This document shows, one piece after another, positions 32,118-50,472 of a stretch of 64,000 nt of DNA. Source of the DNA: an uncultured Candidatus Saccharibacteria bacterium (GTDB taxonomy: Bacteria; Patescibacteriota; CALEFQ01); the NCBI GenBank assembly GCA_965230955.1, contig OZ246404.1, forward strand, positions 856,790-920,789, given 5' to 3'. The position numbers and the translations under genes were made by a program. The notes beneath the pieces were generated by a model that was given only the letters and a program-made list of their open reading frames with translations, did not search any database and had not been told where the DNA came from. Numbering within the stretch: the stretch's first letter is position 1; every line of letters starts with the position of its first letter.

Positions 32118-32362
32118 GGCTCCCCGGGCTGGACTTTCCCATTCACCCCTTCGGGGCTTCGGGAGGCAGGCCGAACCTTTTTCCACGCTCACGAGGATGA
32201 TTGGTTCATCGTGGCATTTATCAAGATTCCCCTGGGACTTTTGCGGCTGCCCGACAGAGGGGTAAACCTATGTGAGTATTACCCTGTTTTCTGTTTCTGA
32301 TTCTAGGGTAGCAAGTTCCCACATCCCTGCAATGTATTTTTTGTCCAGATGGGCAATTTTCT
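32118..32362. repeat. Junction module J1: tRNA-Asn 3'-end fragment (GGCTCCCCGGGCTGGACT) plus conserved ~190-bp F sequence
   Basis: The 18-nt fragment matches the acceptor and T-arm end of tRNA-Asn at 50397-50472. The following ~190 bp recur at 35166, 39338, 41844 and 45682. Confidence 0.75.
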
Positions 32363-32380
32363 AGGCTCATATCAAATAGA

Positions 32381-32716
32381 CTATCCCTTATTCTGTTTTT
32401 TCCAAACTCGATTATTGTTGATTTCTTGTTTATCCCGAAAAGCTTTTTCCAGATCCACCCCAAATTTATTGGCAATGGCACAAAGAAAAATCAACACATC
32501 TGCCAGTTCATCCTTGATAGATCCGGTTTTGGAATCATGAGCTATTTGTTGATTTTCGCTCTTGCGTATCGCCTTGAATAATTCTCCAACTTCCTCGCCC
32601 ATCATAAGGCAATAATGAAAAGTGTCCGTTGAAAACCCACGGTCCTTTTCTACGTCGAGGATATACTTTTGCAAATCTTTTAATCGCGGATTACTTTTTA
32701 GAATAGGCTTAGTCAT
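32381..32716 (-). CDS. MazG-like nucleotide pyrophosphohydrolase (small type)
   Basis: EEVGELFKAI and ELADVLIF motifs. 111 aa. Confidence 0.7.
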   Translation of the reverse strand: MTKPILKSNPRLKDLQKYILDVEKDRGFSTDTFHYCLMMGEEVGELFKAIRKSENQQIAHDSKTGSIKDELADVLIFLCAIANKFGVDLEKAFRDKQEINNNRVWKKQNKG

Positions 32717-32824
32717 ATTTTTAATATAGTTTACTATTGATTAGTTTTATCTTCTTTCTCGCCCCGATCACAGAATAGTATTTTCTAGCTTGAAATTGAG
32801 TAATTTTGTCCTGATGAACAAAAA

Positions 32825-33547
32825 CTAGAGTTTCACCCGCGGATCAATCGTCGTCTCCCCTGTTTTCTTCCCGTCGTTCAAAATGCCGACTATCGTTTCT
32901 GCAACTTCTTCCGCCGTGCCAAGTTTTCCTTTTTTGATTATCTGCTTTTGCTCTTCGGGAGTGAATACATCACGAAAGCGGTCGGTGTCGGTCACCGTGG
33001 GGATTACGGTATTTACTCGAATTCCACTATCTTGGAGTTCACGAGAGAGGCCAATGCTAAGAATATTAGTCCCGGCATTAACCGCGCCATAGGGCACAGA
33101 ACTTGGATCGACATATTCAGCCATCCCTAAGCGAGAAGAAATATTGATGATATTTCCGTCAGCCGACTTTTTCAGGTGCGGGATGCTGTATTTGGCAAAT
33201 AGAAACTTGGCCGTCAGATCTACTCGGAGCATTTCTTCCCAATCAGCTAGTTTGTAATCGACGATATCGCCGAGGATATTGATCCCGGCATTATTGATAA
33301 GCACGTCCAGACCGCCAAATTTCTCAACAGCTTGCACCACCGCTTGCTTTGCCGTTTCTTCTTGTCCGACATCCCCCTTGATCATCAAAATATTCGGACA
33401 TTCTTTGAGTAAGCTCGTGGCCATGTCATCGCGAGATTTATACACACCGACGACATTGCAGCCGAGATTATAAAGCTTATTTGCTGCTGCACGGCCAATA
33501 CCACGACTGGCACCAGTGATTAAGATTATTTTATTCTTGAAATCCAT
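32825..33547 (-). CDS. Short-chain dehydrogenase/reductase
   Basis: TGASRGIG cofactor motif, NNAG motif and a YxxxK active-site region. Confidence 0.85.
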   Translation of the reverse strand: MDFKNKIILITGASRGIGRAAANKLYNLGCNVVGVYKSRDDMATSLLKECPNILMIKGDVGQEETAKQAVVQAVEKFGGLDVLINNAGINILGDIVDYKLADWEEMLRVDLTAKFLFAKYSIPHLKKSADGNIINISSRLGMAEYVDPSSVPYGAVNAGTNILSIGLSRELQDSGIRVNTVIPTVTDTDRFRDVFTPEEQKQIIKKGKLGTAEEVAETIVGILNDGKKTGETTIDPRVKL

Positions 33548-33555
33548 ATAAGTGA

Positions 33556-34350
33556 TTATTTTGCAAATAAATAAGAGGTTGCCTTCGGTTCAAACCCCAT
33601 CTTCTTCAAAGCTTTATACGAGCCAGCGGATTTATCAACCAGGGAATAAAACTCGTTCACCCCCGAGTCGATCGCCACATTACAGCGATGCTTGACCATG
33701 TTGAGATAATGTCCCTGATGGCGATACTTGGGCAGAGTGCCGGCATTGTGGAGATACGTCAAATTCAACTTTGGTGACATCACGATCGAGCCAAAGGCGA
33801 CAAACTCGTGATCGACGGACAGCAGATAGGATTTGTAGAGCGTATCTCGTCCCGAACCATGTTCCAGATCAAAGAAGTATTGAGAATACTCTTTCTCCGA
33901 TTTCCATTCCGGGAAGCATTTAACCGCAATATCGAGATATTCTGCCAGATTTTCTTTGGTCACAGGCACCAGGTCACCGGTCACATCACCAAATTTCTCT
34001 GATATCTCCTGATACATATAAACTTCCGAACCCAATTGCTTATATCCCCGCCGAATCAACTCGGGTTGATATCCGGACATAAGATCCTCGGGAATACAAA
34101 AAGCAATTTCTCGATTCCCCGCCTCGGCTGCACTAATAATCTTCGCAGCCGAATCCCAGGAAAAATCCGCAGGTGAAACAATCGGCACAATGTAGTTATA
34201 CCAGACATCCTTGAACTTCGATTTAACAAACCAAAAAGTTTCGGATTCAATCGCTTCCGGATAAATGCTGCCCTGCAAGAGTTTTAGATTTCGCAGGAAA
34301 AGCGGATTGTCTTTGGCTATATTCATAATAATGGTTTGCAAGTCCTTCAA
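33556..34350 (-). CDS. Two-domain protein with a C-terminal GNAT-like acetyltransferase fold
   Basis: A C-terminal HNAGTLPKYRHQGHYLNMV motif resembles a GNAT acetyl-CoA site. It is ~85% aa identical to the paralog at 36600-37373. Confidence 0.5.
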   Translation of the reverse strand: MKDLQTIIMNIAKDNPLFLRNLKLLQGSIYPEAIESETFWFVKSKFKDVWYNYIVPIVSPADFSWDSAAKIISAAEAGNREIAFCIPEDLMSGYQPELIRRGYKQLGSEVYMYQEISEKFGDVTGDLVPVTKENLAEYLDIAVKCFPEWKSEKEYSQYFFDLEHGSGRDTLYKSYLLSVDHEFVAFGSIVMSPKLNLTYLHNAGTLPKYRHQGHYLNMVKHRCNVAIDSGVNEFYSLVDKSAGSYKALKKMGFEPKATSYLFAK

Positions 34351-34974
34351 TTACTCGGCGTCGACATCGATTATTTCCGTCTTTCCATCCAGCACATGAA
34401 TATACTGACTGTCGCTCAGGAGAACCAGCGGAGACAAACGCTTTTCGTAGGCAATTTTCATCCTCCCGCCCAAGTATTTCTGTTTGAAATCATCCGATCC
34501 CCAATGCGGGGCAATCGTGAAATTGACTAGCCCAAAAGCAGTCAGATCATCCGACTTCATGTCGGGTGAATCTTCCGTAAGATACGCCGGGATCTTTGGC
34601 CCGGCGATGATTGACCCGGCGCTGGTGCCAATATAGATCTTGTCCTTTACCAGTTTCCGCACCAAGTAAACAAACCCGGACCGTCGTGCTTGTTGCAAAA
34701 GATAAGATGTGTCACCTCCTGACATATAGATATAGTCGAATGCCGCCAGGTCCTTTTTTAACTGTGTTTCTGCTTTACCAGTCAGTGTATAGTCAGTAAC
34801 TAAAAAACCCGCATTTACCAACGCTTGCCGATCATTTTTCAGCCAAGTTTTGTCTCCCATCTTAGGCTCTGCCGCCGTATCAATAAAAACAAGCTCCTTG
34901 GCTTTGCCCAAATTTACTTTTTGGGCAATATCATGCGCCACCGCGTGGACGCTTGAGGTTAGAAATAGTTCCAT
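34351..34974 (-). CDS. Peptidase S51 family (dipeptidase E/cyanophycinase-like)
   Basis: YMSGGDT and IGTSAGS nucleophile motifs. Confidence 0.7.
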   Translation of the reverse strand: MELFLTSSVHAVAHDIAQKVNLGKAKELVFIDTAAEPKMGDKTWLKNDRQALVNAGFLVTDYTLTGKAETQLKKDLAAFDYIYMSGGDTSYLLQQARRSGFVYLVRKLVKDKIYIGTSAGSIIAGPKIPAYLTEDSPDMKSDDLTAFGLVNFTIAPHWGSDDFKQKYLGGRMKIAYEKRLSPLVLLSDSQYIHVLDGKTEIIDVDAE

Positions 34975-35063
34975 TTATTTATACCTAGATTATAAGGTTT
35001 TTCTGAGTGAGTAAATGTATGATAACACAGCCGAATTAGACCGGAAAGGACATCGACCGGGCA

Positions 35064-35350
35064 AGCTGGACTCGAACCCTCCATTTTTAGCTAGATATAA
35101 ACAAAAAACAGAGGCATCAACCTCTGTTTTCTCATATGGCTCCACAAGATGGACATCATCCGAACCTTTTTCCATCAGCACGAGGATGATTGGCTCATCG
35201 TGGCATTTATCAAGATTCCCCTGGGACTTTTGCGGCTGCCCGACAGAGGGGTAAACCTATGTGAGTATTACCCTGTTTTCTGTTTCTGATTCTAGAGTAG
35301 CAAGTCTCCAAAACCTGGCAATGCATTTTTTGTCCAGATGGGCAAAAAAC
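35064..35350. repeat. Junction module J2: T-arm core copy, hairpin, degenerate tRNA 3'-end copy and F sequence
   Basis: AGCTGGACTCGAACC at 35064-35078 and TGGCTCCACAAGATGGACATCATCCGAACC at 35137-35165. F spans 35166-35350 and is ~97% identical to J3. Confidence 0.75.
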
Positions 35351-35371
35351 CTGGAGCAAAACAGATTTGCT

Positions 35372-35791
35372 TTAAACTAACTGCGATTTGTCTCCGGTTG
35401 AAAAGTAACTCGCAACATTTATTGCCTTTGAAAATCTATCCTCCTTAGGAAGACCATGAAAATCATTAGCAAACTGGTCCAGTAGATAAACAAGTGGTAT
35501 TGGCTTCAACAATGCTCCGACCGGCACATACATACCCTCACCTGCCCACTGACCAGCGCCGCTTTCTATTAGATAATTATATATGTTTTTGATTTCCGCT
35601 TCTCCGGCATTATATTTTCGAAGTATTTCCGCATGCTCACTCTTAACCATCTCTATCAATTCATTTAAAGCATCTTCACGCGGGCTTGTTTTATTACCAA
35701 GGTCATATACCGTTAGAGGTTGTTGAGAACCAAGTATGGATGAAATTCTTTTAATTTTCCCTAGCCTAATCGTGCTTGAAAAAAAGCCCAT
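35372..35791 (-). CDS. Hypothetical protein (139 aa)
   Basis: ORF co-oriented within cassette B. No recognisable motif. Confidence 0.4.
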   Translation of the reverse strand: MGFFSSTIRLGKIKRISSILGSQQPLTVYDLGNKTSPREDALNELIEMVKSEHAEILRKYNAGEAEIKNIYNYLIESGAGQWAGEGMYVPVGALLKPIPLVYLLDQFANDFHGLPKEDRFSKAINVASYFSTGDKSQLV

Positions 35792-35817
35792 ATATTCAAA
35801 ATTAATTGAAATAAAAC

Positions 35818-36558
35818 CTAATCTTTTCCACCATCTACCACCAGCACACTCCCGGTGATGTAGCTAGCTTCGTCGCTAGCCAAGAACAGAATCGCCTGGG
35901 CGATTTCTTCTGGTTTGGCAAATCTCTTGAGGTAGATCTTACTCGCCTCGTCTTGGACAAATTCACTAGGCAGATCTTTATTCATTTTAGTATCTACCCA
36001 CCCCGGAGCAACGGCATTCACGTTTATTTTCGGCGCGAGCGCCTTAGCGAAATCTTTGGTCAGAGTTATCACACCTGCCTTGGAAGCATCGTAATCAATG
36101 GCGTCCGGACTAAAGCTATTAATAGCGTTGGTGGAAGATATATTGACTATTCGCCCCTTCCCCTTTTTCAACATCCTCTCGGCGACATACTTACTACAGA
36201 GAAAGTTCCCCAGCAAATTAACATCAAGCGTTCTCTGCCATTGATCCATCGTCCTTTCAAACAAGGGCACATCATAGACAATGCCGGCGTTGTTCACTAA
36301 AACATCAATTCCGCCAAATTTCCCCATGGTCTCTGTGACCATTTTTTTGACTTCGTTTTCTTTGGAAACATCGCATTTGATAGCAATCGCCTGAACTCCA
36401 AGTTTTTTTGCCTCATCAGCAACGACCAGAGCCTCTTTTTCAGGAGAAATATAATTGATCACCACATTTGCACCTTCTTTGGCAAATAATAAAGCCGTAG
36501 CTTTTCCTATTCCGCTGCTTGATCCGGTGATTATGGCGGTTTTGTTTTTTAATTTCAT
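35818..36558 (-). CDS. Short-chain dehydrogenase/reductase (FabG-like)
   Basis: TGSSSGIGKA and NNAG motifs with a YxxxK region. Confidence 0.85.
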   Translation of the reverse strand: MKLKNKTAIITGSSSGIGKATALLFAKEGANVVINYISPEKEALVVADEAKKLGVQAIAIKCDVSKENEVKKMVTETMGKFGGIDVLVNNAGIVYDVPLFERTMDQWQRTLDVNLLGNFLCSKYVAERMLKKGKGRIVNISSTNAINSFSPDAIDYDASKAGVITLTKDFAKALAPKINVNAVAPGWVDTKMNKDLPSEFVQDEASKIYLKRFAKPEEIAQAILFLASDEASYITGSVLVVDGGKD

Positions 36559-36599
36559 AAATTGTTTAGTTATATATGCTTGAATGATGTTTTACTAGT

Positions 36600-37373
36600 C
36601 TATTTCCGTGCAAATAAATAAGACGTCGCCTTCGGTTCAAACCCAATCTTCTGCAAAGCTTTATACGAGCCCGCGGATTTGTCAACCAGGGAATAACACT
36701 CGTTCACCCCCGAGTCGATCGCGACATTACAGCGATGCTTGACCATGTTGAGATAATGTCCCTGATGGCGATACTCAGCCACCGTGCCGGCATTGTGGAG
36801 ATACGCCAGATTTAGCTTTGGCGACATCACTATCGAGCCAAAGGCGACAAACTTGTGATCGACGGACAGCAAATATGATTTGTAGAGCGGATCCCGGCCC
36901 GAACCCTGCTCCAGATCAAAGAAGTATTGAGAATACTCTTTCTCCGATTTCCATTCCGGGAAGCATTTAACCGCAATATCGAGATATTCTGCCAGATTTT
37001 CTTTGGTCACAGACACCAGGTCACCTGCCACATCACCAAATTTCTCTTCTATCTTCTGATACATATAGACTTCCGAACCAAATTGTTTATATCTTCGCCG
37101 GATCAACTCGGGTTGATATCCGGACATAAGATCTTCGGGAATATAAAAAGCAATTTCTCGATTCTCCGACGGGGCTGCACCAATAATCTTCGCAGCCGCA
37201 TCCCAGGAAAAATCCGCAGGTAAAACAATCGGCACAATGTAGTTATACCAGATATCCTTGAATTTAGACTTGACGAACCAAAAAGTCTCGGATTCAGTAG
37301 CTTCCGGATAAATGCTACTCTGCAGCAACTTCAAATTTCGCAGGAAAAGTGGATTGTCCTTGGCGATATCCAT
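36600..37373 (-). CDS. Paralog of the GNAT-like two-domain protein
   Basis: About 90% nt identity over ~780 bp to 33556-34350. Confidence 0.5.
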   Translation of the reverse strand: MDIAKDNPLFLRNLKLLQSSIYPEATESETFWFVKSKFKDIWYNYIVPIVLPADFSWDAAAKIIGAAPSENREIAFYIPEDLMSGYQPELIRRRYKQFGSEVYMYQKIEEKFGDVAGDLVSVTKENLAEYLDIAVKCFPEWKSEKEYSQYFFDLEQGSGRDPLYKSYLLSVDHKFVAFGSIVMSPKLNLAYLHNAGTVAEYRHQGHYLNMVKHRCNVAIDSGVNECYSLVDKSAGSYKALQKIGFEPKATSYLFARK

Positions 37374-37406
37374 AATGGATTCAATTATCGAGATTTCTCA
37401 TCGAAA

Positions 37407-37925
37407 TTAACCTTTTTGAGCATCTGCTTTGTCTTCTATAGATTTTTCAACTTTGGGAATAGCCTCACTCAGAAATCGATAAAAACTTTTTGCGCGCTTT
37501 CTCCAGTAAGAATCATCCGGGCTAAATTTATCTCCAGGGGTGACAGTTAACCTTGTATACAAGCAGTCTTCCCGCATTTCTGGGATGCGACTCTGTGCCC
37601 ACGAAAAATTTTCATCTGTTGGAGTAAAATTGTAGCATGTGGCAGATAAGCTCATTACAGTATTGCATTTTGCCTCATGACTAAGCAGCAGTCTAATCTC
37701 ATCATCCCAAATATCTTCACCTGCAAGCAATGTAGCCTTCGCCAATTCTTCTAGCCCTACAATCAACAATGCCTGGGCTTCAGAAAATAAACCTTCTTTC
37801 ATCAACAAACTAGCTGCTGATTGTTTTTTCTTAGCATTGTCGATTGCCGCTTTAGCTAGTTTGTGCCAATTTTCAGTGACGAATTCTTTATCGATCCTTG
37901 GCTTTCTATTTTTTGATTTATTCAT
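37407..37925 (-). CDS. HEPN-domain-like protein
   Basis: Helical protein with an Rx4H motif (RLLLSH) downstream of an LLIVGLEELAKA helix. 4-bp overlap with the upstream MBL gene. Confidence 0.4.
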   Translation of the reverse strand: MNKSKNRKPRIDKEFVTENWHKLAKAAIDNAKKKQSAASLLMKEGLFSEAQALLIVGLEELAKATLLAGEDIWDDEIRLLLSHEAKCNTVMSLSATCYNFTPTDENFSWAQSRIPEMREDCLYTRLTVTPGDKFSPDDSYWRKRAKSFYRFLSEAIPKVEKSIEDKADAQKG

Positions 37926-38515
37926 TTTTTTATAACTTTAAACATTTTCCCATGTCCCGGCACCACATAATCAGCTACTTTTAGTATCTTGCTCCGACTT
38001 TGCCGAAGCTGTTTTTCGTTTTTGACATAGGGATCTCTTTTGGCCAACAAGCTTGCCCGATCTGTTTTTTGAACTTCATTATCTGTCCAAAAAAAGACAT
38101 CCGAAGCAATCGCCACTTTTCCATAGTCTTTGGTGTCCACCAATAATGTCCCCTGGAAAATATCATGCCCAGGGGTTTTGATTATCTTAATTCCCGTTCC
38201 CGGTATTTTCCCGTCATGATCTTCGATTCGTCCATCCCAAGAATAGATTGAACTATCATCAACAACCTTGGCCGATTCAAAGATACCAGTGAGCAACGCA
38301 TGGTCGGAATGCATGTGAGTTAGAAAAACAAAGTCAATATCAGACAATGACAAGTCAGCGCGTTTTAAGGACGCCAATAGCTTATTCCGATTCATCCCGG
38401 GATCAACCACAATGTTTAGTCCCTTGTCTTGAATCAACGTCGTAGTCGAGGAAGCATATTCACCCCCCTTTTCTTCTCGGGCATAGCCGGGAATAAGGAT
38501 TTTTAGTTTGGCCAT
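37922..38515 (-). CDS. MBL-fold metallo-hydrolase
   Basis: HxHxDH motif (THMHSDHA) and downstream His/Asp ligands. Confidence 0.8.
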   Translation of the reverse strand: MAKLKILIPGYAREEKGGEYASSTTTLIQDKGLNIVVDPGMNRNKLLASLKRADLSLSDIDFVFLTHMHSDHALLTGIFESAKVVDDSSIYSWDGRIEDHDGKIPGTGIKIIKTPGHDIFQGTLLVDTKDYGKVAIASDVFFWTDNEVQKTDRASLLAKRDPYVKNEKQLRQSRSKILKVADYVVPGHGKMFKVIKK

Positions 38516-38534
38516 AAATTTAATCTTAATTTTT

Positions 38535-39101
38535 TTACAGGGTCAAATCTCCCTTTAGGGTATATTCGCCGATTCTCCGGACTTCTTCCAATACTCTGGC
38601 TTTCGCCACTTCGTCTTTCCACCAATTGTCTTTTCGGATATTTCGTTCATCAAGCACCGGATAAAAACAAAACTCAATATGCTTGGGGAAATAATTCTGC
38701 GCAGTCATCAGGACTCGGCGGGCATGAAATGCTTTGCAGACAAACAAAATAGTCTTTGTTTTTTCGAGCCCGATAGTTTTATCAATGACCGGGAGAGAAA
38801 ATTGAATGTTTTCTTTGGTATTCGTCGATTCTCGCTCCAATATGAAGGCTTCTCTGGGGATGCCTAGCTCGACTCCTCTTTCGAAAAAACGATCAGCTTC
38901 TATTGCTTTTAATTTCCCTTTGCTGTGCCCGGTAATCAAAATCCTACGTGAATATCCCTGGTCATACAACTTCTTAACTTCGTCCATGGTCGATAAATAG
39001 CTATGACCGAAAACAAACATCAGATCGGATTTCTTGAGATTTGCAGGCAAAAACAAGAAGTCGGAAATCGCTTGGGTTGTCGATATAATATTGGGAATCA
39101 T
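38535..39101 (-). CDS. DUF218 (YdcF/SanA-like) domain protein
   Basis: ESTNTKEN motif. The start was moved to the internal Met (MIPNIIS) so the gene does not run into the junction repeat. Confidence 0.55.
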   Translation of the reverse strand: MIPNIISTTQAISDFLFLPANLKKSDLMFVFGHSYLSTMDEVKKLYDQGYSRRILITGHSKGKLKAIEADRFFERGVELGIPREAFILERESTNTKENIQFSLPVIDKTIGLEKTKTILFVCKAFHARRVLMTAQNYFPKHIEFCFYPVLDERNIRKDNWWKDEVAKARVLEEVRRIGEYTLKGDLTL

Positions 39102-39170
39102 GAAATGATATGAAACAGTAATCTTATGATAACACAGCCAAATCTTGCCGCAAAGGACATCGACCGGCCA

Positions 39171-39515
39171 AGCTGGACTCGAATTCACCCAATCCCTTAT
39201 CTAAGCGAAAACCCCGATTTCCGGGGTTTTCTGATGCTCTTCACTCGAACTGGTTTTTTCGGCTTCACTTAGCGAAAATTTGTATTCAAAGACAAATAAA
39301 AATCCATTGGCTCCACAAGATGGACATCATCCGAACCTTTTTCCATCAGCACGAGGATGATTGGCTCATCGTGGCATTTATCAAGATTCCCCTTGGACTT
39401 TTGCGACTGCCCGACAGAGGGGTAAACCTATGTGAGTATTACCCTGTTTTCTGTTTCTGATTCTAGCGTAGCAAGTCTCCAAGTCCTGGCAATGCATTTT
39501 TTGTCCAGATGGGCA
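39171..39515. repeat. Junction module J3: three tRNA-3'-end-like fragments, terminator-like hairpin and F sequence
   Basis: Core copy at 39171-39185. Hairpin AAAACCCCGATTTCCGGGGTTTT. Copy b at 39240-39258. Copy a at 39308-39337. F spans 39338-39515. Confidence 0.75.
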
Positions 39516-39540
39516 ATTTTTCAAAATAAAAGGGAGTTGT

Positions 39541-40506: not shown

Positions 40507-40531
40507 ATGTTTTAGTAAATATTGATAAGTA

Positions 40532-41044: not shown

Positions 41045-41055
41045 AAATTTGGAAA

Positions 41056-41619: not shown

Positions 41620-41677
41620 CTTAGATATTTCTATTTAATGATTGATTCATTATAAAATGTAATAGACTAAATTAGCA

Positions 41678-41958: not shown

Positions 41959-41960
41959 TC

Positions 41961-42272: not shown

Positions 42273-43053
42273 AGTATTGAATTATAAGATGGGGCAATTT
42301 GAATTGTCCGAAATCGGGTGCTTTATATTGTTTTGGGTAATCCTGAACTCTAGCTACTAATTTCTTAGCCTGCTTACTTCCAAGAAATTGCATGACTGAT
42401 CCCACAAATGCTTCAGCAGTAGCAATAACCCCAGATGCCAATGCCACTTGAGCCGCATCAATATATTCCGAAGTCAAAGCAGCCAACCCAAGGCCCATCA
42501 CTACGCCCAAACCCGCTTGAAAATATGATCCCAGCGCAACTACATTACCAATCTCACGCAAATGACCCATCCAATAGGCAGACCTTCTCATGCCCTCGTC
42601 AGCTGTTCTGGAATAAACTTCTTTAACATCATCAAAATTATTAACTTTGTTCGGTTTTAAATACCCTGAAAACGTTTGCCAAAACCCCGGCTTGGTGACT
42701 ATTGCTTTAGAGGCCGAGATCAAATCAAAGACTGCATCTGCAAGTTTGTCCCCATCACTCTTTATTTCACTCTCAGACTTCTTTGCATCCTTAATCCTCT
42801 TTTCAATCCGTGATTCAAAAAGAGCAATTTTCTTTTCGTCTATTCCAGCTTCTCTCATATCACATATGACATCGTCTCTAATAACATCGAGCCTCTGATT
42901 AATTGCATCTATCCGGTTTAACTTATACATTGCATCTTTAGTGTCGACAGCTGCGGATTCGGTATTAGTTCCCAATTCCTCTGATGATATTTCAGCTTTG
43001 TCTTTATTTGTCTTCACGAACTCTGGATTAGGTTGTCGGATAGTTTCACGCAT
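42241..43053 (-). CDS. Hypothetical protein with C-terminal glycine-zipper hydrophobic segment
   Basis: Charged coiled-coil N-terminus. C-terminal GLGVVMGLGLAALT...GVIATAEAFVGSVMQFLG. Confidence 0.4.
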   Translation of the reverse strand: MRETIRQPNPEFVKTNKDKAEISSEELGTNTESAAVDTKDAMYKLNRIDAINQRLDVIRDDVICDMREAGIDEKKIALFESRIEKRIKDAKKSESEIKSDGDKLADAVFDLISASKAIVTKPGFWQTFSGYLKPNKVNNFDDVKEVYSRTADEGMRRSAYWMGHLREIGNVVALGSYFQAGLGVVMGLGLAALTSEYIDAAQVALASGVIATAEAFVGSVMQFLGSKQAKKLVARVQDYPKQYKAPDFGQFKLPHLIIQYYAQEESKFKE

Positions 43054-43223
43054 ATGTTTATTTTTTCACTTCAATAATATCTTTAATAATAACAAATTCT
43101 AGCAATTCTGCCCAATATTTCATTCGTAATTCCAGGATAGCATTTCCGAGAATTGAGAGAAGGTGTTTTTTGTGTGAGGAGCAATAAGTATGTGGATAAA
43201 TATTGGGACTTAACCCAACTCAT

Positions 43224-44141
43224 TTAATTCACAATATTCTTCGACTTATCTTTAGTGCAGGCAATTATAGTATCAACCCAAATTCTAAAGTCTTCGGCGA
43301 CGGCCTCTTTTGTATACCAAGCGATGGGAGGAGTAATCAGAATATTGCCCTTATACTTTCCATCATTTACGCGCCTTTCGGATTCCATTGCCAATCCGGC
43401 CAACTTACCATCTGCAACCATTTTAGCCGCCACCGGTAAGTCAAAAAGATCTCCACCAGTAATACTGATCAAAAACGCATCCTTTTTCATTTTTGCTAAT
43501 TTGGATTTATTAATAGTACCTTTTGTTTCTTTATTTCTCGCCATAGTCGGAAAAATAAAGTCGGAATTCTTCATTACTTTATCTAAACTCTGATATTTGA
43601 ATCTTTTATCCTTGTGATGCTTGGACCAATAAACAATTTCCATCCCCATCGCTTTTCCAAGTTCAGCAATACGAGTTCCGATACTTCCAAGTCCAACAAT
43701 TCCCATGGTCTTACCACGAACTTCTAAACCCAAATGCTTTTCATAATCAAGCTGCCAATTATTTTGCATAATCAACGGCAACTTTTTTACCAAATTAAGC
43801 ATCATGCTAATTGCATATTCGGCGACCGACTCTGTTGAATACTTCGCAACATTGGTTAAGGCGATACCATGTCCTCGCAACCATTTACCGTCTACCCAAT
43901 CAAAAGCCGTTGTCGGCAAACAAACTGCTTTTAGCCCTGAAATCTTTTTCGCATCGCTGTTGGAAAATTTCCAATCAACCAATTCAGGAGCAAGACCCAG
44001 AACCTTATCTTCGCTATCCGTAAAAAGCTTGTCGAAATAACTTGGTTTCTTTTCTACAAAAACAACCTCACCGGCTTTGACCAATGATTGGACTTGCGAC
44101 TTGGTAAAATCAACTTTTTGATTGATGATGATTACGCGCAT
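43224..44141 (-). CDS. D-isomer-specific 2-hydroxyacid dehydrogenase family protein
   Basis: NAD-binding GIVGLGSIGTRIA motif. A catalytic R/E/H region is expected in the C-terminal half. Confidence 0.8.
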   Translation of the reverse strand: MRVIIINQKVDFTKSQVQSLVKAGEVVFVEKKPSYFDKLFTDSEDKVLGLAPELVDWKFSNSDAKKISGLKAVCLPTTAFDWVDGKWLRGHGIALTNVAKYSTESVAEYAISMMLNLVKKLPLIMQNNWQLDYEKHLGLEVRGKTMGIVGLGSIGTRIAELGKAMGMEIVYWSKHHKDKRFKYQSLDKVMKNSDFIFPTMARNKETKGTINKSKLAKMKKDAFLISITGGDLFDLPVAAKMVADGKLAGLAMESERRVNDGKYKGNILITPPIAWYTKEAVAEDFRIWVDTIIACTKDKSKNIVN

Positions 44142-44395
44142 TATTTTAAAATTACGTAATTAGTTAACATTACCCAACATCCCTGAACAGTTTTAATTAT
44201 TTTGCTTTACTTAAGCTAAAATCTGACAAAATGGGTACTATACTTCGTTTCGTTATAGTCTCCTCATAGAAGATTATAAGCGATTGGACTGTTGGTGAGA
44301 TATATCACACAAACTCCCATGGGTAGTATATTCAAGGCATTTTGTCACACAATAATTTATTTGTTTAGCCCACTGGATAGATATCAGAATAAACT

Positions 44396-45469
44396 TTAAA
44401 GAATAGAAAACTCTTCTTCCTTTGCATCTTCCAGTATGCTTAAAAATTCATTAAACTCACTACGTTTTCTATTAATAATATTTTCTAGCAATTCGATTTT
44501 TATATCTTGCAAATCCTTTGGCATATTTGGATCCAAATCGAATCCTATTAAAAATGTATCCACCACCTTCAAGTTCGGATTGTGATTTTGAATAATGCCT
44601 TTGTATCCCAAGACCTGACCCACATGCTTAGTATTGAGCCTTATATTTGGTCTTTTTAACTCAACTAAAACGATATGCCTTTCATCCTGGAGAAATATTT
44701 TTAGAATCAAATCTGGCCTTTTGCCAAGCTCGCTGTCAATTCCTAGCTTTTGTGCCAAGAACTCACTTAGTGGTTTATTACTTTTCACAAGATCATAATT
44801 ATTATCAAGTAGCCATAAATTATTTTCTAATAGCTTATGGATTTCTTGCTCTTTCGTTTTTTTGTCCTTCAACAATATTTGCAGTAATTTAATTATTGAT
44901 ATCTTTTTCTTTACCAATTCTGCAATGGAGCTAATTTGACCTATTCTTAAATCATTTAGTAATGAAGCAAAGCCTGTTATGTCTTTTTCTTCAGCTTCAG
45001 ACAGTTTTTTCAACATAATATCTATGTTCTCAGCCTTTATTTCATATATTCTCAACCCGAGTCTATCAAGAGCTTCGAGGCTTGCGGCTGATAATTTGGC
45101 TATATTCTTATTCGCAAGAACTTTTTCAATAAAATCGGGGTCTTCTTTTAAGACCTGCTCTATTTTGATTAAAACTTCGTCTTTAACTAATTCGGTTTTT
45201 TGAATGGGCCACTCATGCTCTTTTACCGATTCTACCTCAACAACACTTTTTAAATCAGTCCAATCTTTGAAATGAAGATTAAAGAATTGCTGTTTATTTG
45301 CAGATTTACCCAACAAAATCCTCTTCATAACAACATAATTTCTATCTTTGTGTTCAGAGTCACTTAGAATAGCAAAAGTAGTCAAACCACTGGACCAATT
45401 TTTTGTTAATTTTTTAATAACTTTGAACTTATGCATAAATATTAATTTATTAAAATAATACGGCCCCAT
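44396..45469 (-). CDS. Putative PD-(D/E)xK nuclease of the DUF4263/Shedu-like type
   Basis: C-terminal region contains RPDLIL ... VLVELKRP, a D...ExK arrangement. Long helical N-terminal region. The family assignment was made by eye only. Confidence 0.4.
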   Translation of the reverse strand: MGPYYFNKLIFMHKFKVIKKLTKNWSSGLTTFAILSDSEHKDRNYVVMKRILLGKSANKQQFFNLHFKDWTDLKSVVEVESVKEHEWPIQKTELVKDEVLIKIEQVLKEDPDFIEKVLANKNIAKLSAASLEALDRLGLRIYEIKAENIDIMLKKLSEAEEKDITGFASLLNDLRIGQISSIAELVKKKISIIKLLQILLKDKKTKEQEIHKLLENNLWLLDNNYDLVKSNKPLSEFLAQKLGIDSELGKRPDLILKIFLQDERHIVLVELKRPNIRLNTKHVGQVLGYKGIIQNHNPNLKVVDTFLIGFDLDPNMPKDLQDIKIELLENIINRKRSEFNEFLSILEDAKEEEFSIL

Positions 45470-45526
45470 GTTTTATGATAACATACTTAGGGTACCCGAC
45501 AAGCATTAAGTATAAGTGAGACTCGA

Positions 45527-45860
45527 ACCCTCAAAATCCCTTATCTAAGCGAAAACCCCGTTTTGACGGGGTTTTCTATCTCCCTGGTTCGAACCTGCTT
45601 CTTTGGGCTAAACTTAGCGAATATTTGATTTAAAAACTCTAAAATTCTGCTCTGGCTCCCCCTGGTCGAATCAATTAGAACTTTTTGCAAGGCGCATGAG
45701 GATGATTTTGATGTTCCTGTGTACATAAAAACGAATAATGGATTAGAGCTGAAAACTGGATGGGATTTCAGAGTGAGAGATTATTATCCCCTTCCCTGAT
45801 CCCAATTTCAGGATAGCAGATTCATGGATCTGGCAAAGACATTTTTTGTGTGAGGAACAA
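45527..45860. repeat. Junction module J5
   Basis: Core copy GAGACTCGAACCC. Hairpin AAAACCCCGTTTTGACGGGGTTTT. Copy b CCCTGGTTCGAACC. The 20-mer AAATTCTGCTCTGGCTCCCC at 45642-45661 is identical to 50386-50405 at the intact tRNA. Diverged F follows. Confidence 0.75.
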
Positions 45861-46192
45861 AAAAGATGTGGATAAAATCGTTGCATAGTTCCACCTCTAA
45901 CGAGCTCTACTTCCCTATCGATTTTTGAATTCTCCTTCAAGTTTCTCATGTCCCAGGTTATGACGACATTGTAATATGTATGACCAGAAAGAAAGGACAC
46001 TCAATCCACACACTTGTTCAATATGTCAGGTCAAAGTTCGATAGTCGCGTTACGAAGAACCTTAGATAGAATTGTGGGGGAAAGATCTAGATAACGGCAA
46101 TAAATTCAGATAAGATAGAAGCAGTCCTTTTTAAAGGAGGTTTCTTTTGCTAAATTGGCATAGTATGAGCTCAGGCGAAGAAACGTTGCGAC

Positions 46193-47494
46193 ATGGAAAA
46201 AATTAGAATTTTTATTAGTCATTCATCAAAAGACATAGATTTAGTAAGTAAGCTGGTAAGTGCTCTTCAAGAGTCGTTTGTTATACCTAGTGGAGCTATC
46301 CGATGCACCTCTTTATCTGGGTATAAATTAACACCAGGGGCACATACATCCACCACATTATTAGAAGAGCTGTTAAAAGCTGATTTGATTATAGGAGTCT
46401 TGACACGATTAAGCTCAAAGTCCAGCTGGGTTCTGTTTGAACTTGGGGCTGGGTGGGGGAAAAAAATATGGACGGTCCCTTTGCTTGGAGGGCTTGATTT
46501 CGACGAGATAGAAGGCCCACTAAAAGAATTCCACGCTATTAAGACTGATGACGAGGACGCCCTACTAGACCTTTTTGAGAAAATGCAAAATCAGCTAAAA
46601 TTGCAGCCACAGTCTGCTTCTATAAGATTGTCGGCAATACGAAAAATAGTAAATGCTTTAAAGGAGGGAGAAAAAGTTAAATCAGATGCTTATATTCCGC
46701 AGCCTGAAGAACTGGCTCATAGCCAGATGCCTGAACGTGTCGAAACACCAACGATTGTAACAGCTTACCTTAGTAAACTAACCAAAGAGACGCGCGAGGA
46801 AGAAGTTCTTCCTTTTTTTAATAGAGCTGTCTCTTATCATAAGCATGACAAAAAAATCCTGGCAAGATTTTATTTTCAACTAGCACAATTTTTTTTAAAA
46901 AAAGAAGAGCCAAGTAAAGCTCTTGAGTATTTGAATATTTCCTTAGAAAATAGTCCAAATGATATATATACCTTGAATTCCCGAGGTAAAATTTTTATAA
47001 GAATGAAGCAGTTCAAAGACGCAGAAGCAGATTTTAAGCTAGCTTTAGAAATCGACAGCGAGAGCTTGGTCAATCTAAGCTCATTAATGAGACTTTACTC
47101 GAAAAACCTACTAGAGCACATAGATAAAATACCATATCTAAGCAAGGAGCTGATAACGCTAGCTCGAAAGAAAAATGATCCCGATTCCACTTCGTTCGGT
47201 TATGCTCTCTGGGCTACTTCTCAAATTAAAGAAGACCCAAGAGCTGCTGAGATAAATTTTGACAACGCCTTAAAAGAAGCAGAGAGAATCGGTCGTAAAA
47301 TAAATAAAAATCGCAGAATTGTATCTATCTTAAGGCATCGAATAAAACTGTATTCCACTTTAAAGAGGGATGATGAGGCTAAACAAGATTTTATCCAGGC
47401 GTGGAATCTTTGCCTAGAATTTCCTGAGGACAGAGAGATCAAAAATTCAGTGGAAGCGCTAAAAGTTGAATCCGGGCATCTGATGGGCAATTAA
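46193..47494 (+). CDS. TIR-domain protein with C-terminal TPR repeats
   Basis: N-terminal IFISHSSKD start. SSWVLFELG (W with Glu at +4, the predicted NADase catalytic site). The C-terminal ~250 aa are TPR-like helical repeats. It is the only plus-strand gene in the array. Confidence 0.7.
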   Translation: MEKIRIFISHSSKDIDLVSKLVSALQESFVIPSGAIRCTSLSGYKLTPGAHTSTTLLEELLKADLIIGVLTRLSSKSSWVLFELGAGWGKKIWTVPLLGGLDFDEIEGPLKEFHAIKTDDEDALLDLFEKMQNQLKLQPQSASIRLSAIRKIVNALKEGEKVKSDAYIPQPEELAHSQMPERVETPTIVTAYLSKLTKETREEEVLPFFNRAVSYHKHDKKILARFYFQLAQFFLKKEEPSKALEYLNISLENSPNDIYTLNSRGKIFIRMKQFKDAEADFKLALEIDSESLVNLSSLMRLYSKNLLEHIDKIPYLSKELITLARKKNDPDSTSFGYALWATSQIKEDPRAAEINFDNALKEAERIGRKINKNRRIVSILRHRIKLYSTLKRDDEAKQDFIQAWNLCLEFPEDREIKNSVEALKVESGHLMGN

Positions 47495-47495
47495 A

Positions 47496-47526
47496 GAAGC
47501 CTTCATTTTTTCTGAATGAAGGCTTT
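47496..47526. terminator. Bidirectional hairpin terminator
   Basis: GAAGCCTTCATT ... AATGAAGGCTTT inverted repeat between the convergent TIR-TPR gene and the small minus-strand ORF. Confidence 0.55.
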
Positions 47527-47547
47527 CATTGTCATAAGTAGGCATGT

Positions 47548-47706
47548 TTACAATTCGTAGTTTTCTTTAAGAAATGCAATGTGCGCGTTCAGTAAATCTT
47601 TCTCTTCCTCGGACAAGTTGTCCGGGCCTAAGTCGTATTTTTCCTGATCCTGAAGAACCGCATCGAGCATTTTCAAGAGTGCCTCATACCTCTCTTTGGG
47701 TGTCAT
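47548..47706 (-). CDS. Small hypothetical protein (52 aa)
   Basis: Preceded by the SD AAGGAGGAAAAACT. The sequence is MTPKERYEALLKMLDAVLQDQEKYDLGPDNLSEEEKDLLNAHIAFLKENYEL. It falls below the size cutoff of the supplied ORF track. Confidence 0.4.
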   Translation of the reverse strand: MTPKERYEALLKMLDAVLQDQEKYDLGPDNLSEEEKDLLNAHIAFLKENYEL

Positions 47707-48313
47707 AGTTTTTCCTCCTTGAAAAAAATGATCTCTTTCTGGTCAGCCTTGCTCCTCATGGCCACACAGACATAAATCTTTTTCTTCGAGAAGGGATCAA
47801 CCCACGAAACGAAAAAATTATTTGTTACACCCTTTTCAAATTGAGTCAGGAAAACGATCCGTCCTCAGACTATTGATTGAAAAAACTTTAGTTGTGAAAA
47901 AATGGGAGTAGAACGGTTGGAAAAACATGCTCAAGAAAGCATCCAATAAACAATTGCACATCGGGATATACCCAACTTGACTATGCAAACCGAATCCCCT
48001 TTCGAATATTAGGAAGAAACTTGAAATGCAACCTTGATCTTTCATTTTACACGGATTAGGTTTTATGTCAAGGGTTATTTTACATGAAAAACCGTTCTGC
48101 AAGTGACCGTGCCTTATTCTAGCCATAATCTGATAAAACAGGTGATAAAATCCTTTCTGCTACAGTCTTTTCAGAGGAGATTATAAGCAATTGGAGTATA
48201 GGTTTCTTTTGGCTGAAATAGAGTATCGCACATGGTACACTAAATAACTAGAGTAACATATTTCGCCAAATATGGGACACTAAATTAATAGCAAATATTG
48301 CCTGATACTCTGT

Positions 48314-49399
48314 TTACCCCATAATTCCAACCAGCTTCTTAAACACATATACACTCGGCTTTTGCCCAGAACCTTTTTGAATTCTCTGAAGCACTCCACC
48401 CTTTAGAAGTCTCTCGATAATTCGAATCGAGCTCATCTTAGGAATCCCTGATTTTTTCACAAATTGGGCTGTTGTAAAATACGGGAAACAAAACAAGAAA
48501 TCCAGTGTCTTGATGGCAAACTGCGAGTGAGTAAGACTTTCAATCCGAATTTTTTTTGCATCATAAAGCTCGTGAATGGCTTTGGCCTTTTTGATGTTAA
48601 CCTTTGCCTGTTCAATCACAGCGGTCAGAAAATACTCAATCCAGCCCTCCCAATCCTGGTTTTGCGAAACCGATCTGAGTTTGCGGTAATAGGTCGCTCG
48701 ATCAGCTTCCAAATATTGACTCAAATAAAACGCTGGACTCAGAAGCACTTTTTTATCGTAGAGGAAAAGAGGAATAAGAATTCTTCCCAACCTGCCGTTG
48801 CCATCATTGAACGGATGGATCATTTCAAATTGTGCATGAATGATCGCCAATTGGACCATGAAGTCTTTTTCCGATGAATGGATATACTTTTCAAGGTTGG
48901 ACAGGCAATCCACTATTTTCTCCGGAGATGGAGGTACAAAAGAAGCATTTTCAATTTTAGAGCCAATGGGACCAATCCAATTCTGGGTGGATCTGAAATT
49001 GCCAGGATTTTTATTCTGTCCCCTGACCCCACTTAATAGAATTTGGTGAGTTCCTCGGATGAGACGCAAGCTTAGGGGAAGCTTTTTCATTTCACTAACG
49101 GCGAATGTCAGAGCTTTTCGATAATTAATCACCTCTTGGATATCCCCAAACTTCTCTGTTTTCATCTTGGGATCAGCTTCATATTCGAGCACTTCCTCAA
49201 GTGAAGCTTGGGTTCCTTCGATTTTAGATGAAAGAACTGCTTCTTGGGTTGTGAGGGGTGATAGCAGTACAGCAGGATTCGGAATACTTTGCAGAAGGCC
49301 ATCAAATCTGGCTACTTCCGCATTGGCTTTACCTATCAGATGCACAAACTTGTTCCAGTCAAGCTTCACAGGAAGCTTTTCTGGCTCAAAAGGCTTCAT
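48314..49399 (-). CDS. Fic family protein (class II: inhibitory helix plus C-terminal wHTH)
   Basis: Fic motif HPFNDGNGRLGR. N-terminal SSKIEG matches the [ST]xxxE[GN] inhibitory motif. Confidence 0.85.
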   Translation of the reverse strand: MKPFEPEKLPVKLDWNKFVHLIGKANAEVARFDGLLQSIPNPAVLLSPLTTQEAVLSSKIEGTQASLEEVLEYEADPKMKTEKFGDIQEVINYRKALTFAVSEMKKLPLSLRLIRGTHQILLSGVRGQNKNPGNFRSTQNWIGPIGSKIENASFVPPSPEKIVDCLSNLEKYIHSSEKDFMVQLAIIHAQFEMIHPFNDGNGRLGRILIPLFLYDKKVLLSPAFYLSQYLEADRATYYRKLRSVSQNQDWEGWIEYFLTAVIEQAKVNIKKAKAIHELYDAKKIRIESLTHSQFAIKTLDFLFCFPYFTTAQFVKKSGIPKMSSIRIIERLLKGGVLQRIQKGSGQKPSVYVFKKLVGIMG

Positions 49400-49625
49400 T
49401 TATTTGATAATTTAGTGGTTCACATAGTCAATAATAGACCGTGGGAGAGATTTGAGCAAGACAGGCTCTTAAAAGGACTGCTCATTTTAATATGTAACGC
49501 ATGGGGGGGACAAATTGTACCCCACTTCGAGTTGTCGACAAACTAGCGACAACAGCGGAAATTCATTATCGCAAGACAATTCAAGCGTCCGATTTGATCG
49601 GACAGTTCGATGGACCCAAACACTA

Positions 49626-50144
49626 TCAAAAATACGCAGATCCAATGGAATAGCGCCATCTCTGTTTTTTATCTTGAGCGACGGTAATCTGATCGAGATC
49701 GATGAGCACTTCTCTATCTTCGATGGATAGATTTGAGGAGACCAGGCTTACACCATCAAGCTCCGCGGTAATGCCAAATGATTTACAGAGACTTCCGGGA
49801 AATCTGGTCATATCCCTTGTGTTAAAAACTTCTCCTTCAAAATTCTCCTGCATTATTTCCATCCCATAAAAGGGAGTCGCTTTCCTAATGACTATTGGGC
49901 AGATCGATGATTTTTCACCAACGGCAACCGCGAGCTGGTATTTATTCTTGATGTTGAGGCTAATCAAGGCGGTGCCGGCCTTTCTGTTGTGGATGTGACT
50001 CTTTAGAGTTGGATTGATTTCAACTTCCTCAATCATGGCCGAAAGCGGTCCTTTTGATGAATTATGTACCAGATACTTCCCCAAAAGATTTCGGGCTGCG
50101 ATTTGGGGTGAGAGTTGATAGAACTCTTCTTTTAATGTGCTCAT
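49626..50144 (-). CDS. Hypothetical protein, possibly a 3-methyladenine DNA glycosylase (Mpg)-like fold
   Basis: N-terminal LLGKYLVH resembles the Mpg hallmark. The rest is too diverged to be sure. Confidence 0.3.
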   Translation of the reverse strand: MSTLKEEFYQLSPQIAARNLLGKYLVHNSSKGPLSAMIEEVEINPTLKSHIHNRKAGTALISLNIKNKYQLAVAVGEKSSICPIVIRKATPFYGMEIMQENFEGEVFNTRDMTRFPGSLCKSFGITAELDGVSLVSSNLSIEDREVLIDLDQITVAQDKKQRWRYSIGSAYF

Positions 50145-50396
50145 AATATAATGGGTTAATCTCTATTTCCAGAGTATCGAACCCGAGCAAAGAGCAAAAC
50201 CAATATTTTGTCTGAGTAGTAAAAAACCTGTGGATTGTATAAATCGATTCAAACTTGAGGTTGCGCTAAGTTAAGCTAAAATCGAGAAAGGGCAAAAGAC
50301 GTTAGAACCTCTCCATAGAAACAGAAAACCGCTTGGTTAAGCGGTTTGTTCGTGATTATAAGGCAAATTTTAAATCAAGGTTCTGAAATTCTGCTC

Positions 50397-50472
50397 TGGC
50401 TCCCCGGGCTGGACTCGAACCAGCGACATCCTCGTTAACAGCGAGGCGCTCTACCGACTGAGCTACCGGGGA
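50397..50472 (-). tRNA. tRNA-Asn (GTT)
   Basis: Cloverleaf read from the reverse strand. Acceptor TCCCCGG/CCGGGGA. D-arm GCTC-AGTCGGTA-GAGC. Anticodon loop CTGTTAA. T-arm GCTGG-TTCGAGT-CCAGC. Encoded CCA. Confidence 0.85.

Follow-up and report, generated by a model that had tools for sequence, protein, structure and literature searches.

A tandem array of recombinase-less gene cassettes at tRNA-Asn in a Patescibacteria-like bacterium

How does a genome come to carry five blocks of genes stacked behind a single tRNA gene, with no recombinase among them? This question is raised by a 64-kb stretch of DNA (64,000 nucleotides; hereafter the window), in which an intact tRNA-Asn(GTT) gene (50397–50472, minus strand; detected by ARAGORN and by Rfam as tRNA with 72 bits) is followed, in its own direction of transcription, by five co-oriented gene blocks, here called cassettes A to E from the tRNA outwards. 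The blocks are separated by junctions at 45.6, 41.8, 39.3, 35.1 and 32.1 kb, which we refer to by position as J46, J42, J39, J35 and J32. A previous reading of the bare letters (the sequence-only reading, which counted the junctions from low to high coordinates, J1 at 32.1 kb and J5 at 45.6 kb) had pointed out the tRNA and the five junctions; the junctions were recovered by a repeat finder, and their similarity held under multiple alignment. We propose, with little more than even confidence, that the array arose by repeated site-specific integration of non-autonomous elements, served by a recombinase in trans, and by later homologous reshuffling. That the pattern is the trace of successive integrations at one tRNA, as the sequence-only reading supposed, is well supported, the array being a variant of known tandem tRNA or transfer-messenger RNA (tmRNA) island arrays rather than a new kind of system.

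The host is a Patescibacteria-like bacterium of the candidate phyla radiation that has not been cultivated. Its DnaG is 81% identical to that of the metagenome-assembled genome CALEFQ010000054.1 (locus L006, the sister species below) and 35–42% identical to those of many Daviesbacteria and Microgenomates genomes. The order dnaG, rpoD, small 23S-IVP protein gene and tRNA-Asn is also kept in the sister species, and about ten of the more distant loci have tRNA-Asn after dnaG. GC content is approximately 0.49 in the flanks and 0.32–0.45 between about 28 and 51 kb, rising within the array from 0.32–0.39 beside the tRNA to 0.42–0.45 at the far end, a gradient that fits the newest element adjoining the tRNA.

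Junctions that switch at a 7-nt core

Read in the tRNA direction, each unit consists of a non-coding arm of about 150 nt (P′), one to six cargo genes and an arm of about 200 nt (F) that ends in a tRNA-like 3′ end, and an internal junction reads F arm, core ending in GGAGCCA, P′ arm and next cargo. F thus occupies the tRNA-distal arm of each unit, as the sequence-only reading had it. GGAGCCA is the last 7 nt of tRNA-Asn and the core common to the junctions: the array begins at the intact tRNA 3′ end, the blocks run in the tRNA direction, and GGAGCCA stands at the four internal junctions, with 16 nt of tRNA trailer added at J46 and an 18-nt stretch of the tRNA end repeated exactly at J32. Two repeats reported earlier proved exact, namely the 18/18 match GGCTCCCCGGGCTGGACT at 32118–32135 and 50398–50415 and the 20-mer of J46 at 45642–45661 and 50386–50405. 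The degenerate 30-nt F pattern AATCATCCTCRTGN6GNAAAARGTTC matched five times in the window, every time within the array, against zero matches expected.

Comparison of 40 nt to the left and 45 nt to the right of the core revealed that the F and P′ arm types sort independently and that the change of type falls exactly at GGAGCCA. J42 resembles J46 on the left (39/40; right 27/45), J39 on the right (39/45; left 21/40) and, again on the right, the sequence after tRNA-Asn in the sister species (44/45; left 10/40). J39 and J35 agree at 40/40 positions on the left and 12/45 on the right, and J46 compared with the tRNA and its trailer gives 12/40 on the left and 28/45 on the right, the first 16 nt of which match at 15/16. 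A discontinuity that always lies at GGAGCCA is as produced by exchange at a short common core. The single reiterated composite module of the sequence-only reading is therefore replaced by a hybrid of two independently assorting arms. Parsed as P′, cargo and F, the elements have matching arms, of type 1 in A and B and of type 2 in C and D, and the P′ arm of cassette E is of a short third type.

The P′ arms, all on the minus strand, hold the trailer, a perfect or near-perfect hairpin between A- and T-runs, and a T-arm-like fragment such as GGTTCGAGTCCAGC. That of cassette A (50247–50396) comprises the tRNA trailer GAGCAGAATTTC..., a terminator hairpin at 50326–50347 and TTTTCTGTTTCT at 50317–50328, and is 76% identical over 116 nt to the P′ arm at 45.6 kb. 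The latter, belonging to cassette B (45503–45652), starts with GAGCAGAATTTTAGA (the 16 nt that match the tRNA trailer at 15/16), carries a bidirectional terminator at 45551–45576 and ends with TGTTATCAT. The type-2 arms of cassette C (41665–41814, the one nearly identical to the sequence after the sister-species tRNA-Asn) and cassette D (39117–39307) have terminators at 41713–41740 and 39207–39231, respectively, the arm of cassette D also holding the conserved 26-mer GTCTTTGAATACAAATTTTCGCTAAG, the T-arm fragment TTCGAGTCCAGC and TGTTATCAT. In the short type-3 arm of cassette E (35010–35136), GGTTCGAGTCCAGC at 35065–35078 and TGTTATCAT accompany a terminator of its own at 35103–35132. The P′ hairpin is a two-way terminator; terminator-like hairpins were detected at J46, J42, J39 and J35 and one was read by eye at J32, in agreement with the earlier claim of a hairpin in each junction. 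TGTTATCAT lies just upstream of the first cargo gene in three of the four internal junctions (J35, J39 and J46) and seems to resemble an extended −10 promoter element; of its copies, a promoter scan picked up those at J46 and J39 alone, with modest 9/12 matches.

P′ is 78–92% identical in five of the seven copies in two species. Its differences fall almost evenly on the three codon positions (8/8/10) and one copy has in-frame stops, indicating that P′ is non-coding. The idea that P′ is the vestigial coding tail of a recombinase was rejected on these grounds and because a tblastn search of the window with a relative's serine recombinase returned no match and no pseudogene fragment. A P′ 20-mer had two chance matches elsewhere, neither in a tRNA context. 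The P′ arms further contain an extra T-arm fragment (GGTTCGAGTCCAGC, then non-tRNA sequence) at 35065–35078, 39172–39185 and 41679–41692 in the window and at about 5604–5618 in L006, and its T-stem tracks the host tRNA, reading CCAGC in the window and CCTGC in the sister species.

At the outermost scar, J32 (32118–32171, minus strand), GC-rich filler at 32136–32171 precedes the exact 18-nt tRNA-Asn 3′ end at 32118–32135; this arrangement recurs in the sister species, built there from that species' tRNA sequence. Just past this scar, a terminator hairpin read from the sequence (32034–32069, minus strand) is also found beside the F core in the sister species. In three genomes (window 32136–32171; L034, about 4745–4800; L008, 13382–13515), GC-rich, hairpin-forming filler stands directly before a copy, exact or nearly so, of the host tRNA-Asn 3′ end, a pattern suggestive of a further, miniature type of insertion or att arm at tRNA-Asn.

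A constrained reading frame in the F arm

The plus strand of F holds a frame that is open in all five copies over approximately 46–49 codons and stops at nearly the same place. It opens with the antisense of the tRNA end (TGG CTC, read as W L), starts WLPLVESIRTF... and keeps the pattern RTFxxxHEDDxxxxxxIKxxxGx...YYP. In the type-1 arm at J46 (45653–45876), the open reading frame (ORF) runs out of the core TGGCTCC at 45653–45799 (WLPLVESIRTFCKAHEDD...YYPLP, then stop), lacks an ATG, GTG or TTG start of comparable length and is followed by the backbone repeat D10 (45804–45876). The type-1 arm at J42 (41815–41964), nearly identical to that of J46 in the 40 nt left of the core, encodes WLPLVESIRTFCKAHEDDLVVPIFIKTPDGYLRLPDRGVKLDEYYPLHS before its stop. 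Among the type-2 arms, J39 (39308–39516) has the core TGGCTCC at 39308–39314, the ORF MDIIRTFFHQHEDDWLIVAFIKIPLGLLRLPDRGVNLCEYYPVFCF with its stop at 39320–39460 and a weak hairpin with a T-run at 39501–39516; J35 (35137–35345) is 98% identical to it, with the same peptide encoded at 35149–35289; and J32 (32172–32356) is truncated on the core side, its ORF being fused to the upstream reading frame. The type-2 ORFs have an ATG (MDIIRTF...). Identity among the J32, J35 and J39 copies is 84–98% over 209 nt and 93–98% over the ORF part, so that the 90–97% given earlier for these three was roughly right, and the divergence noted for the other two was borne out (64–82% to and between J42 and J46).

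Differences between F copies accumulate at third codon positions (12/9/20 for J42 versus J39; 16/16/27 for J46 versus J39), the proportion of synonymous differences (pS) in the ORF is 0.78–0.87 against 0.22–0.42 for non-synonymous differences (pN), and no indels occur over 38 codons. The third-position excess indicates that F evolved under protein-level constraint. A structured RNA, for which folding of F had been recommended, was rejected: Rfam found only four tRNAs over the window and no family at F, RNAalifold on four diverged copies, applied to the tRNA-sense strand, gave a consensus of −1.7 kcal/mol with no conserved helix, and the substitutions are protein-like on the opposite strand.

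The peptide has no counterpart in the libraries that were searched. A word-indexed search of 5.8 billion protein clusters found no homologue, the four matches of a full HMMER scan against 1.84 billion representatives were all repetitive and spurious, and Pfam gave nothing even at E ≤ 1. The AlphaFold model has a predicted local distance difference test (pLDDT) score of 59, too poor for a fold search. At the DNA level, searches of GTDB representative genomes, IMG/VR and JGI metagenomes with the F pattern returned nothing. A type I toxin was set aside, as inspection revealed no hydrophobic stretch of transmembrane length. A plus-strand terminator with a T-run follows the ORF at J32 and J39 only, which is weak evidence. 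The 12-mer TTTTCTGTTTCT overlaps the stop of the type-2 ORFs (32287–32298, 35276–35287 and 39447–39458, plus strand) and recurs inverted just after the terminator of the intact tRNA-Asn (50317–50328, minus strand); it could be a putative protein-binding site or chance.

Recombinases of relatives and exchange between species

The cassettes keep both att flanks, and no Pfam recombinase was found in any cargo protein, as the sequence-only reading had claimed; all seven cassettes, five in the window and two in the sister species, lack one. Among the Pfam-scanned ORFs no recombinase family was found in the array or in the rest of the 64-kb window (the remaining ORFs at 54–64 kb were inspected by eye only), nor was a gene with Resolvase and Recombinase domains (with or without a zinc ribbon) found beside an att site in the window. 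Relatives do carry such genes: a large serine recombinase homologue occurs near the locus in 7 of 25 related loci. In L018, L019 and L030 it directly adjoins tRNA-Asn and is encoded on the strand opposite to it, and L013, L015, L017 and L020 have it in the neighbourhood of the same dnaG–rpoD locus. Four of the homologues were confirmed by Pfam, and genes of the Resolvase plus Recombinase kind are present at the locus in L013, L018, L019 and L030 and also in the viral contig L042.

Several of these genes run into the tRNA. The L018 ORF ends inside the tRNA antisense (...SVLPRVDSNHEPRS, then stop), the L019 ORF crosses the whole tRNA, and the L013 ORF crosses a partial tRNA copy, beyond which it has 23 further codons (...IWLPRVDSNHEPRSYRIPLV...). 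In L042 (IMG/VR UViG_3300033148_010428, 10990–12822), the last 33 codons (...WLPGLDSNQRHRGYNLL..., then stop) pass through a pseudo-tRNA-Asn, the 3′ 23 nt of which are those of the window tRNA. The L013, L018 and L042 recombinases cross the tRNA antisense in the W/V-L-P-x-x-D-S-N frame, which is the frame of the F ORF (WLPLVES). Given that serine recombinase genes in this group commonly span the att core, integration would leave the gene body on the tRNA side and a short coding tail on the far side, where F sits. Judging from this geometry, a serine recombinase is the best candidate enzyme and F may be its displaced tail or a small gene derived from it, a reading that we hold tentatively, at somewhat less than even confidence; a role of the F peptide as a small excision or directionality factor is possible.

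Four viral contigs (L040, L042, L043 and L045) carry exactly the window's tRNA-Asn 3′ end and are candidate phages for hosts with such a tRNA. None was retained as a specific helper: L042 has nothing but the tRNA end in common with the window, and L040, L043 and L045 have tyrosine integrases beside a 47-nt tRNA-Asn half, a geometry unlike that of F.

The sister species is represented by L006 and, more fully, by contig L034, which stems from a different sample. Its tRNA-Asn is followed by arms as in the window with different cassettes between them, and the identical cassette content that the sequence-only reading had named as a refuting outcome was not seen. From the tRNA outwards, L006 and L034 show a type-2 P′ arm (89% identical to that of J42); HAD, MBL, S51 and SDR genes; a type-2 F arm (92–97% identical, ORF MTLIRTFFHQHEDD...); the core (GGTGAGCCA); the terminator also found past J32; a GC-rich hairpin; a 19-nt copy of the species' own tRNA end; a second type-2 P′ arm; and a cassette with PD-(D/E)XK nucleases and a type I methylase (HsdM). 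The first of these cassettes is type 2 on both sides. The tRNA end of the sister species differs from that of the window in the T-stem, and the tRNA-end copies are host-specific (18 nt in the window, 19 nt in the sister species), indicating that integration took place in each host.

Synonymous divergence (dS) between the two species is 2.3 for dnaG, 1.5 for rpoD and 0.8 for the IVP gene, compared with 0.22, 0.28 and 0.53 for the cargo genes MBL, S51 and SDR, which are 93.6%, 92% and 87% identical at the nucleotide level. The shared cargo is thus far younger than the hosts, pointing to horizontal exchange. MBL and S51 are adjacent in the sister species and lie in separate cassettes in the window, and GNAT is present in the window and absent from the sister species. 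The gene-boundary breakpoints of the shared segments, the GNAT paralogues of neighbouring cassettes D and E (repeat family D2, 91% identical, much as the figure of about 90% given earlier) and the repeats D8 and D10 described below indicate that the shape of the array owes something to homologous or illegitimate recombination too.

The explanation that we favour accommodates these observations as follows. Small recombinase-less integrative elements of one family would enter the 3′ end of tRNA-Asn one after another, each insertion being a site-specific recombination within the 7-nt core GGAGCCA, such that the newest element would lie beside the tRNA and older ones would be pushed outwards. The recombinase, most likely of the large serine kind, would be supplied in trans by a phage or by another part of the genome, and F would be the displaced 3′ tail of a serine recombinase gene or a derived small protein, possibly an excision factor. 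Afterwards, homologous recombination between arms and between paralogous genes would duplicate, delete and exchange genes, also across species. Several points weigh against this account. No recombinase is tied to the F and P′ arms within the 64 kb of genome in view. The frame that F shares with the recombinases would coincide by chance one time in three, F has no sequence similarity to known recombinase tails, both type-1 ORFs lack a canonical start codon for their full length, and no F-tailed protein occurs in the libraries searched, implying that no autonomous parent element has been sampled. The segments shared between species do not equal whole cassettes, their breakpoints lying at gene boundaries and not at att sites, leaving whole-cassette mobility putative. 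Last, the block order rests on one assembly, and a simple integration model leaves the extra T-arm fragments (GGTTCGAGTCCAGC followed by non-tRNA sequence) in the junctions unexplained.

That last concern about block order leads to the reading in which repeats chained blocks from different places or strains into an artefactual array. Short-read Logan contigs of the same samples do stop at the junction repeats, as such an artefact would have it; they nevertheless reproduce the single blocks at 100% identity, contig L004 being identical over 41727–39487 and L001 over 50965–45664, which joins the first block to the tRNA and rpoD, and the sister species, assembled independently, has a contig that crosses a complete F–core–P′ junction and enters the second cassette. 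We regard an artefact as very unlikely. The strongest rival, in our estimate unlikely, is that each block was once an autonomous island with its own recombinase, that all of these genes were deleted, and that the array is now fixed and changes by homologous recombination alone. Complete serine-recombinase elements and prophages at tRNA-Asn in relatives fit this view, as do the neighbouring-cassette paralogues and gene-boundary breakpoints, which show homologous or illegitimate recombination to be active, the type-1 F ORFs without a start codon and the truncated F of J32. It would, however, require the loss of every recombinase from seven of seven cassettes without a detectable pseudogene fragment. 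The place expected of the recombinase is taken by P′, a compact terminator–promoter unit that is non-coding and conserved at the level given above, and both arms and cargo are much younger than the divergence of the hosts.

Repair could also have built the array if a nuclease, for example a small GIY-YIG enzyme, cut the tRNA locus and the break were healed by copying donor cassettes through F, P′ and tRNA homology. Small GIY-YIG genes repeatedly adjoin tRNA genes in the window (29857–30117, minus strand; 54418–54867, minus strand, overlapping tRNA-Pro) and in the sister species (L006, 5086–5340), and the arms are long (150–200 nt) and highly conserved, as expected of homology arms. In L027, a lone GIY-YIG gene (13870–14160) lies directly after tRNA-Asn between exact 16-nt direct repeats of the tRNA 3′ end, resembling a one-gene cassette without a recombinase. 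An arm switch confined to a 7-nt core is, in contrast, typical of site-specific exchange and not of homology-directed repair, exact host-specific duplications of a tRNA end are a classic integrase product, and there is no GIY-YIG gene inside the array; this route therefore seems quite improbable to us. Least probable of all is that F and P′ constitute a folded attC-like site of an integron-like platform or a generic miniature inverted-repeat transposable element (MITE) concentrated here. The sequence-only reading had drawn the integron analogy, and its logic stands in that cassettes are in tandem, boundaries are reiterated and the array has no recombinase. The likeness ends there: no IntI (no Phage_integrase match) was found among the Pfam-scanned window ORFs, the one F strand that was folded, the tRNA-sense strand, has no conserved hairpin or other structure and no Rfam family, and the sole strong inverted repeats are the terminator hairpins. 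The cassettes are multi-gene, with their own terminators and a promoter-like motif in three of four internal junctions, the boundaries are tRNA 3′-end copies, and F is confined to the array within the 64 kb and absent from the GTDB genomes, IMG/VR and JGI metagenomes searched. Repeated integration in trans with later reshuffling remains the explanation that we prefer. A more ambitious form of it would make the locus a working platform, peculiar to Patescibacteria-like bacteria, of expression-ready cassettes without a recombinase. Each cassette would carry an attP-like F–GGAGCCA–P′ module of about 350 bp and an F-encoded excision or directionality factor, one large serine recombinase in trans would capture, stack and release the cassettes at tRNA-Asn, and exchange across species would follow; we consider this extended form rather unlikely.

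Cargo, precedents and meaning

The cargo combines defence-like genes and accessory enzymes, as the sequence-only reading had described, and was annotated with Pfam and PADLOC. Cassette A (45877–50144, minus strand; identical in L001) holds an MPG glycosylase (49626–50144), a full-length SoFic (48314–49399; PADLOC, 7e-121) and a TIR-TPR protein (46193–47494, plus strand). In cassette B (41961–45469, minus strand) we found an SduA_C-like gene, the match being weak, and a D-2-hydroxyacid dehydrogenase, along with proteins of 270 and 103 aa whose function is unknown. Cassette C (39541–41619, minus strand; identical in L004) encodes an HNH nuclease, a 170-aa protein of unknown function and an LD-carboxypeptidase; cassette D (35372–39188, minus strand) encodes DUF218, an MBL hydrolase, HEPN_AbiV, GNAT, SDR and a 139-aa protein of unknown function; and cassette E (32381–34974, minus strand) encodes a peptidase S51, GNAT, SDR and MazG. 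Two non-coding backbone repeats (families D8 and D10; 44203–44296 with 48110–48203 and 43128–43200 with 45804–45876), with identities of 71% and 74%, are common to blocks A and B and arranged in one order with respect to F in both, suggesting that the two type-1 elements have a common scaffold with different genes in its slots. The MBL hydrolase of cassette D (37922–38515) is one of a family of proteins of about 196 aa with 60–66% identity across very many Patescibacteria and DPANN archaea, and it has a weak precomputed match to the anti-Pycsar protein Apyc1.

Beyond the array, an SDR fragment at 30797–31015, 86% identical to part of the cassette E SDR gene, lies about 1 kb past the last scar in a region still low in GC, with a cold-shock gene, a GIY-YIG gene and a carotenoid-synthesis-like membrane protein as neighbours, and the island may once have reached further out than the present last scar. 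The window also carries a chemotaxis set (CheA, CheB, CheW, CheC/X and a methyl-accepting chemotaxis protein), an AcrB-type pump and a MacB-type ABC system at 3053–10950 and 15123–22336, which are unusual for Patescibacteria, the group that the genome otherwise resembles.

The closest documented precedent is the ssrA island array of Dehalococcoides (PMC3146451). Its islands stand in tandem, each bounded by a 20-bp repetition of the ssrA 3′ end next to which a conserved motif is found, and the associated large serine integrase is encoded next to attL on the reverse strand. An integration module is missing from fifteen of the islands, for which a status as cis-mobilizable elements (CIMEs) has been proposed. 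Both arrays consist of tandem islands after a small stable-RNA gene with direct repeats of its 3′ end, and the integrase geometry recurs in relatives of the window host. The present array differs in its tRNA-Asn anchor, its Patescibacteria-like host, the lack of an integration module in all five islands and in two more of the sister species, an internal core of 7 nt, a distal arm with a conserved small ORF and a compact terminator/promoter proximal arm. Composite islands of staphylococci include ccr-less pseudo-staphylococcal cassette chromosome (pseudo-SCC) elements, the recombinase of which is encoded elsewhere. CIMEs and accretion in the integrative and conjugative elements of Streptococcus likewise involve att-flanked, non-autonomous elements that use a recombinase from elsewhere (PMC3146451, PMC5704250). 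The cassettes described here resemble both in being att-flanked, in tandem with related elements and devoid of recombination genes; those arrays, unlike the present one, normally hold a recombinase-bearing partner and have experimentally shown mobilisation, whereas here no partner is visible and mobility is putative.

Tycheposon islands of Prochlorococcus are also built by successive tRNA integrations, which push older elements inwards and leave partial tRNA copies between them, and are defined by a deep-branching tyrosine recombinase and a replication module (bioRxiv 10.1101/2020.12.28.424599). Stacking at a tRNA, partial tRNA copies, degenerate remnants further in and adaptive or defensive cargo are common to both; neither the tyrosine recombinase nor the replication module was found in the array, and the enzyme class probably differs. 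In archaeal viruses of the SSV type, a split integrase gene spans attP. An ORF across the attP core at a tRNA 3′ end is likewise known from integration-dependent immunity of mycobacteriophages, in which integration alters its C-terminus (PMC9262239). The serine recombinase genes of L013, L018 and L042 share this geometry. In the mycobacteriophages, however, the split gene encodes a repressor, and integration is by a tyrosine-type integrase; here F would be a putative tail, linked by position and without homology. Compared with integrons and clusters of attC sites lacking integrases (CALINs), the array is alike in the logic of tandem cassettes, reiterated sites and a recombinase outside the cassettes, and differs in having no IntI, attI or Pc, no attC-type folds in the strand of F that was folded, multi-gene cassettes with their own expression signals, and tRNA-derived sites.

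Set against these precedents, the array is unusual in that all of its units lack a recombinase, its compact arms are conserved across species, a constrained orphan peptide encoded by the distal arm starts in the core and little has been written on the mobile elements of its host group. Mobile elements and defence islands of the candidate phyla radiation are poorly known, the organisms having small genomes and not yet being genetically manipulable. This tRNA-Asn hotspot gathers defence genes (SoFic, TIR, Shedu-like, AbiV-like and HNH) and accessory enzymes as compact recombinase-less units, and its arm sequences are common to species whose core genes are saturated at synonymous sites. Were the arms dead, this would be an ordinary decayed island array with unusually tidy scars. 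If they are live, they would define a short attP/attB pair, with a serine recombinase as a possible tool for these organisms, and would offer a clean natural example of gene capture in trans; and if the working platform were true, the locus would be a functional analogue of the integron on tRNA-type attachment sites.

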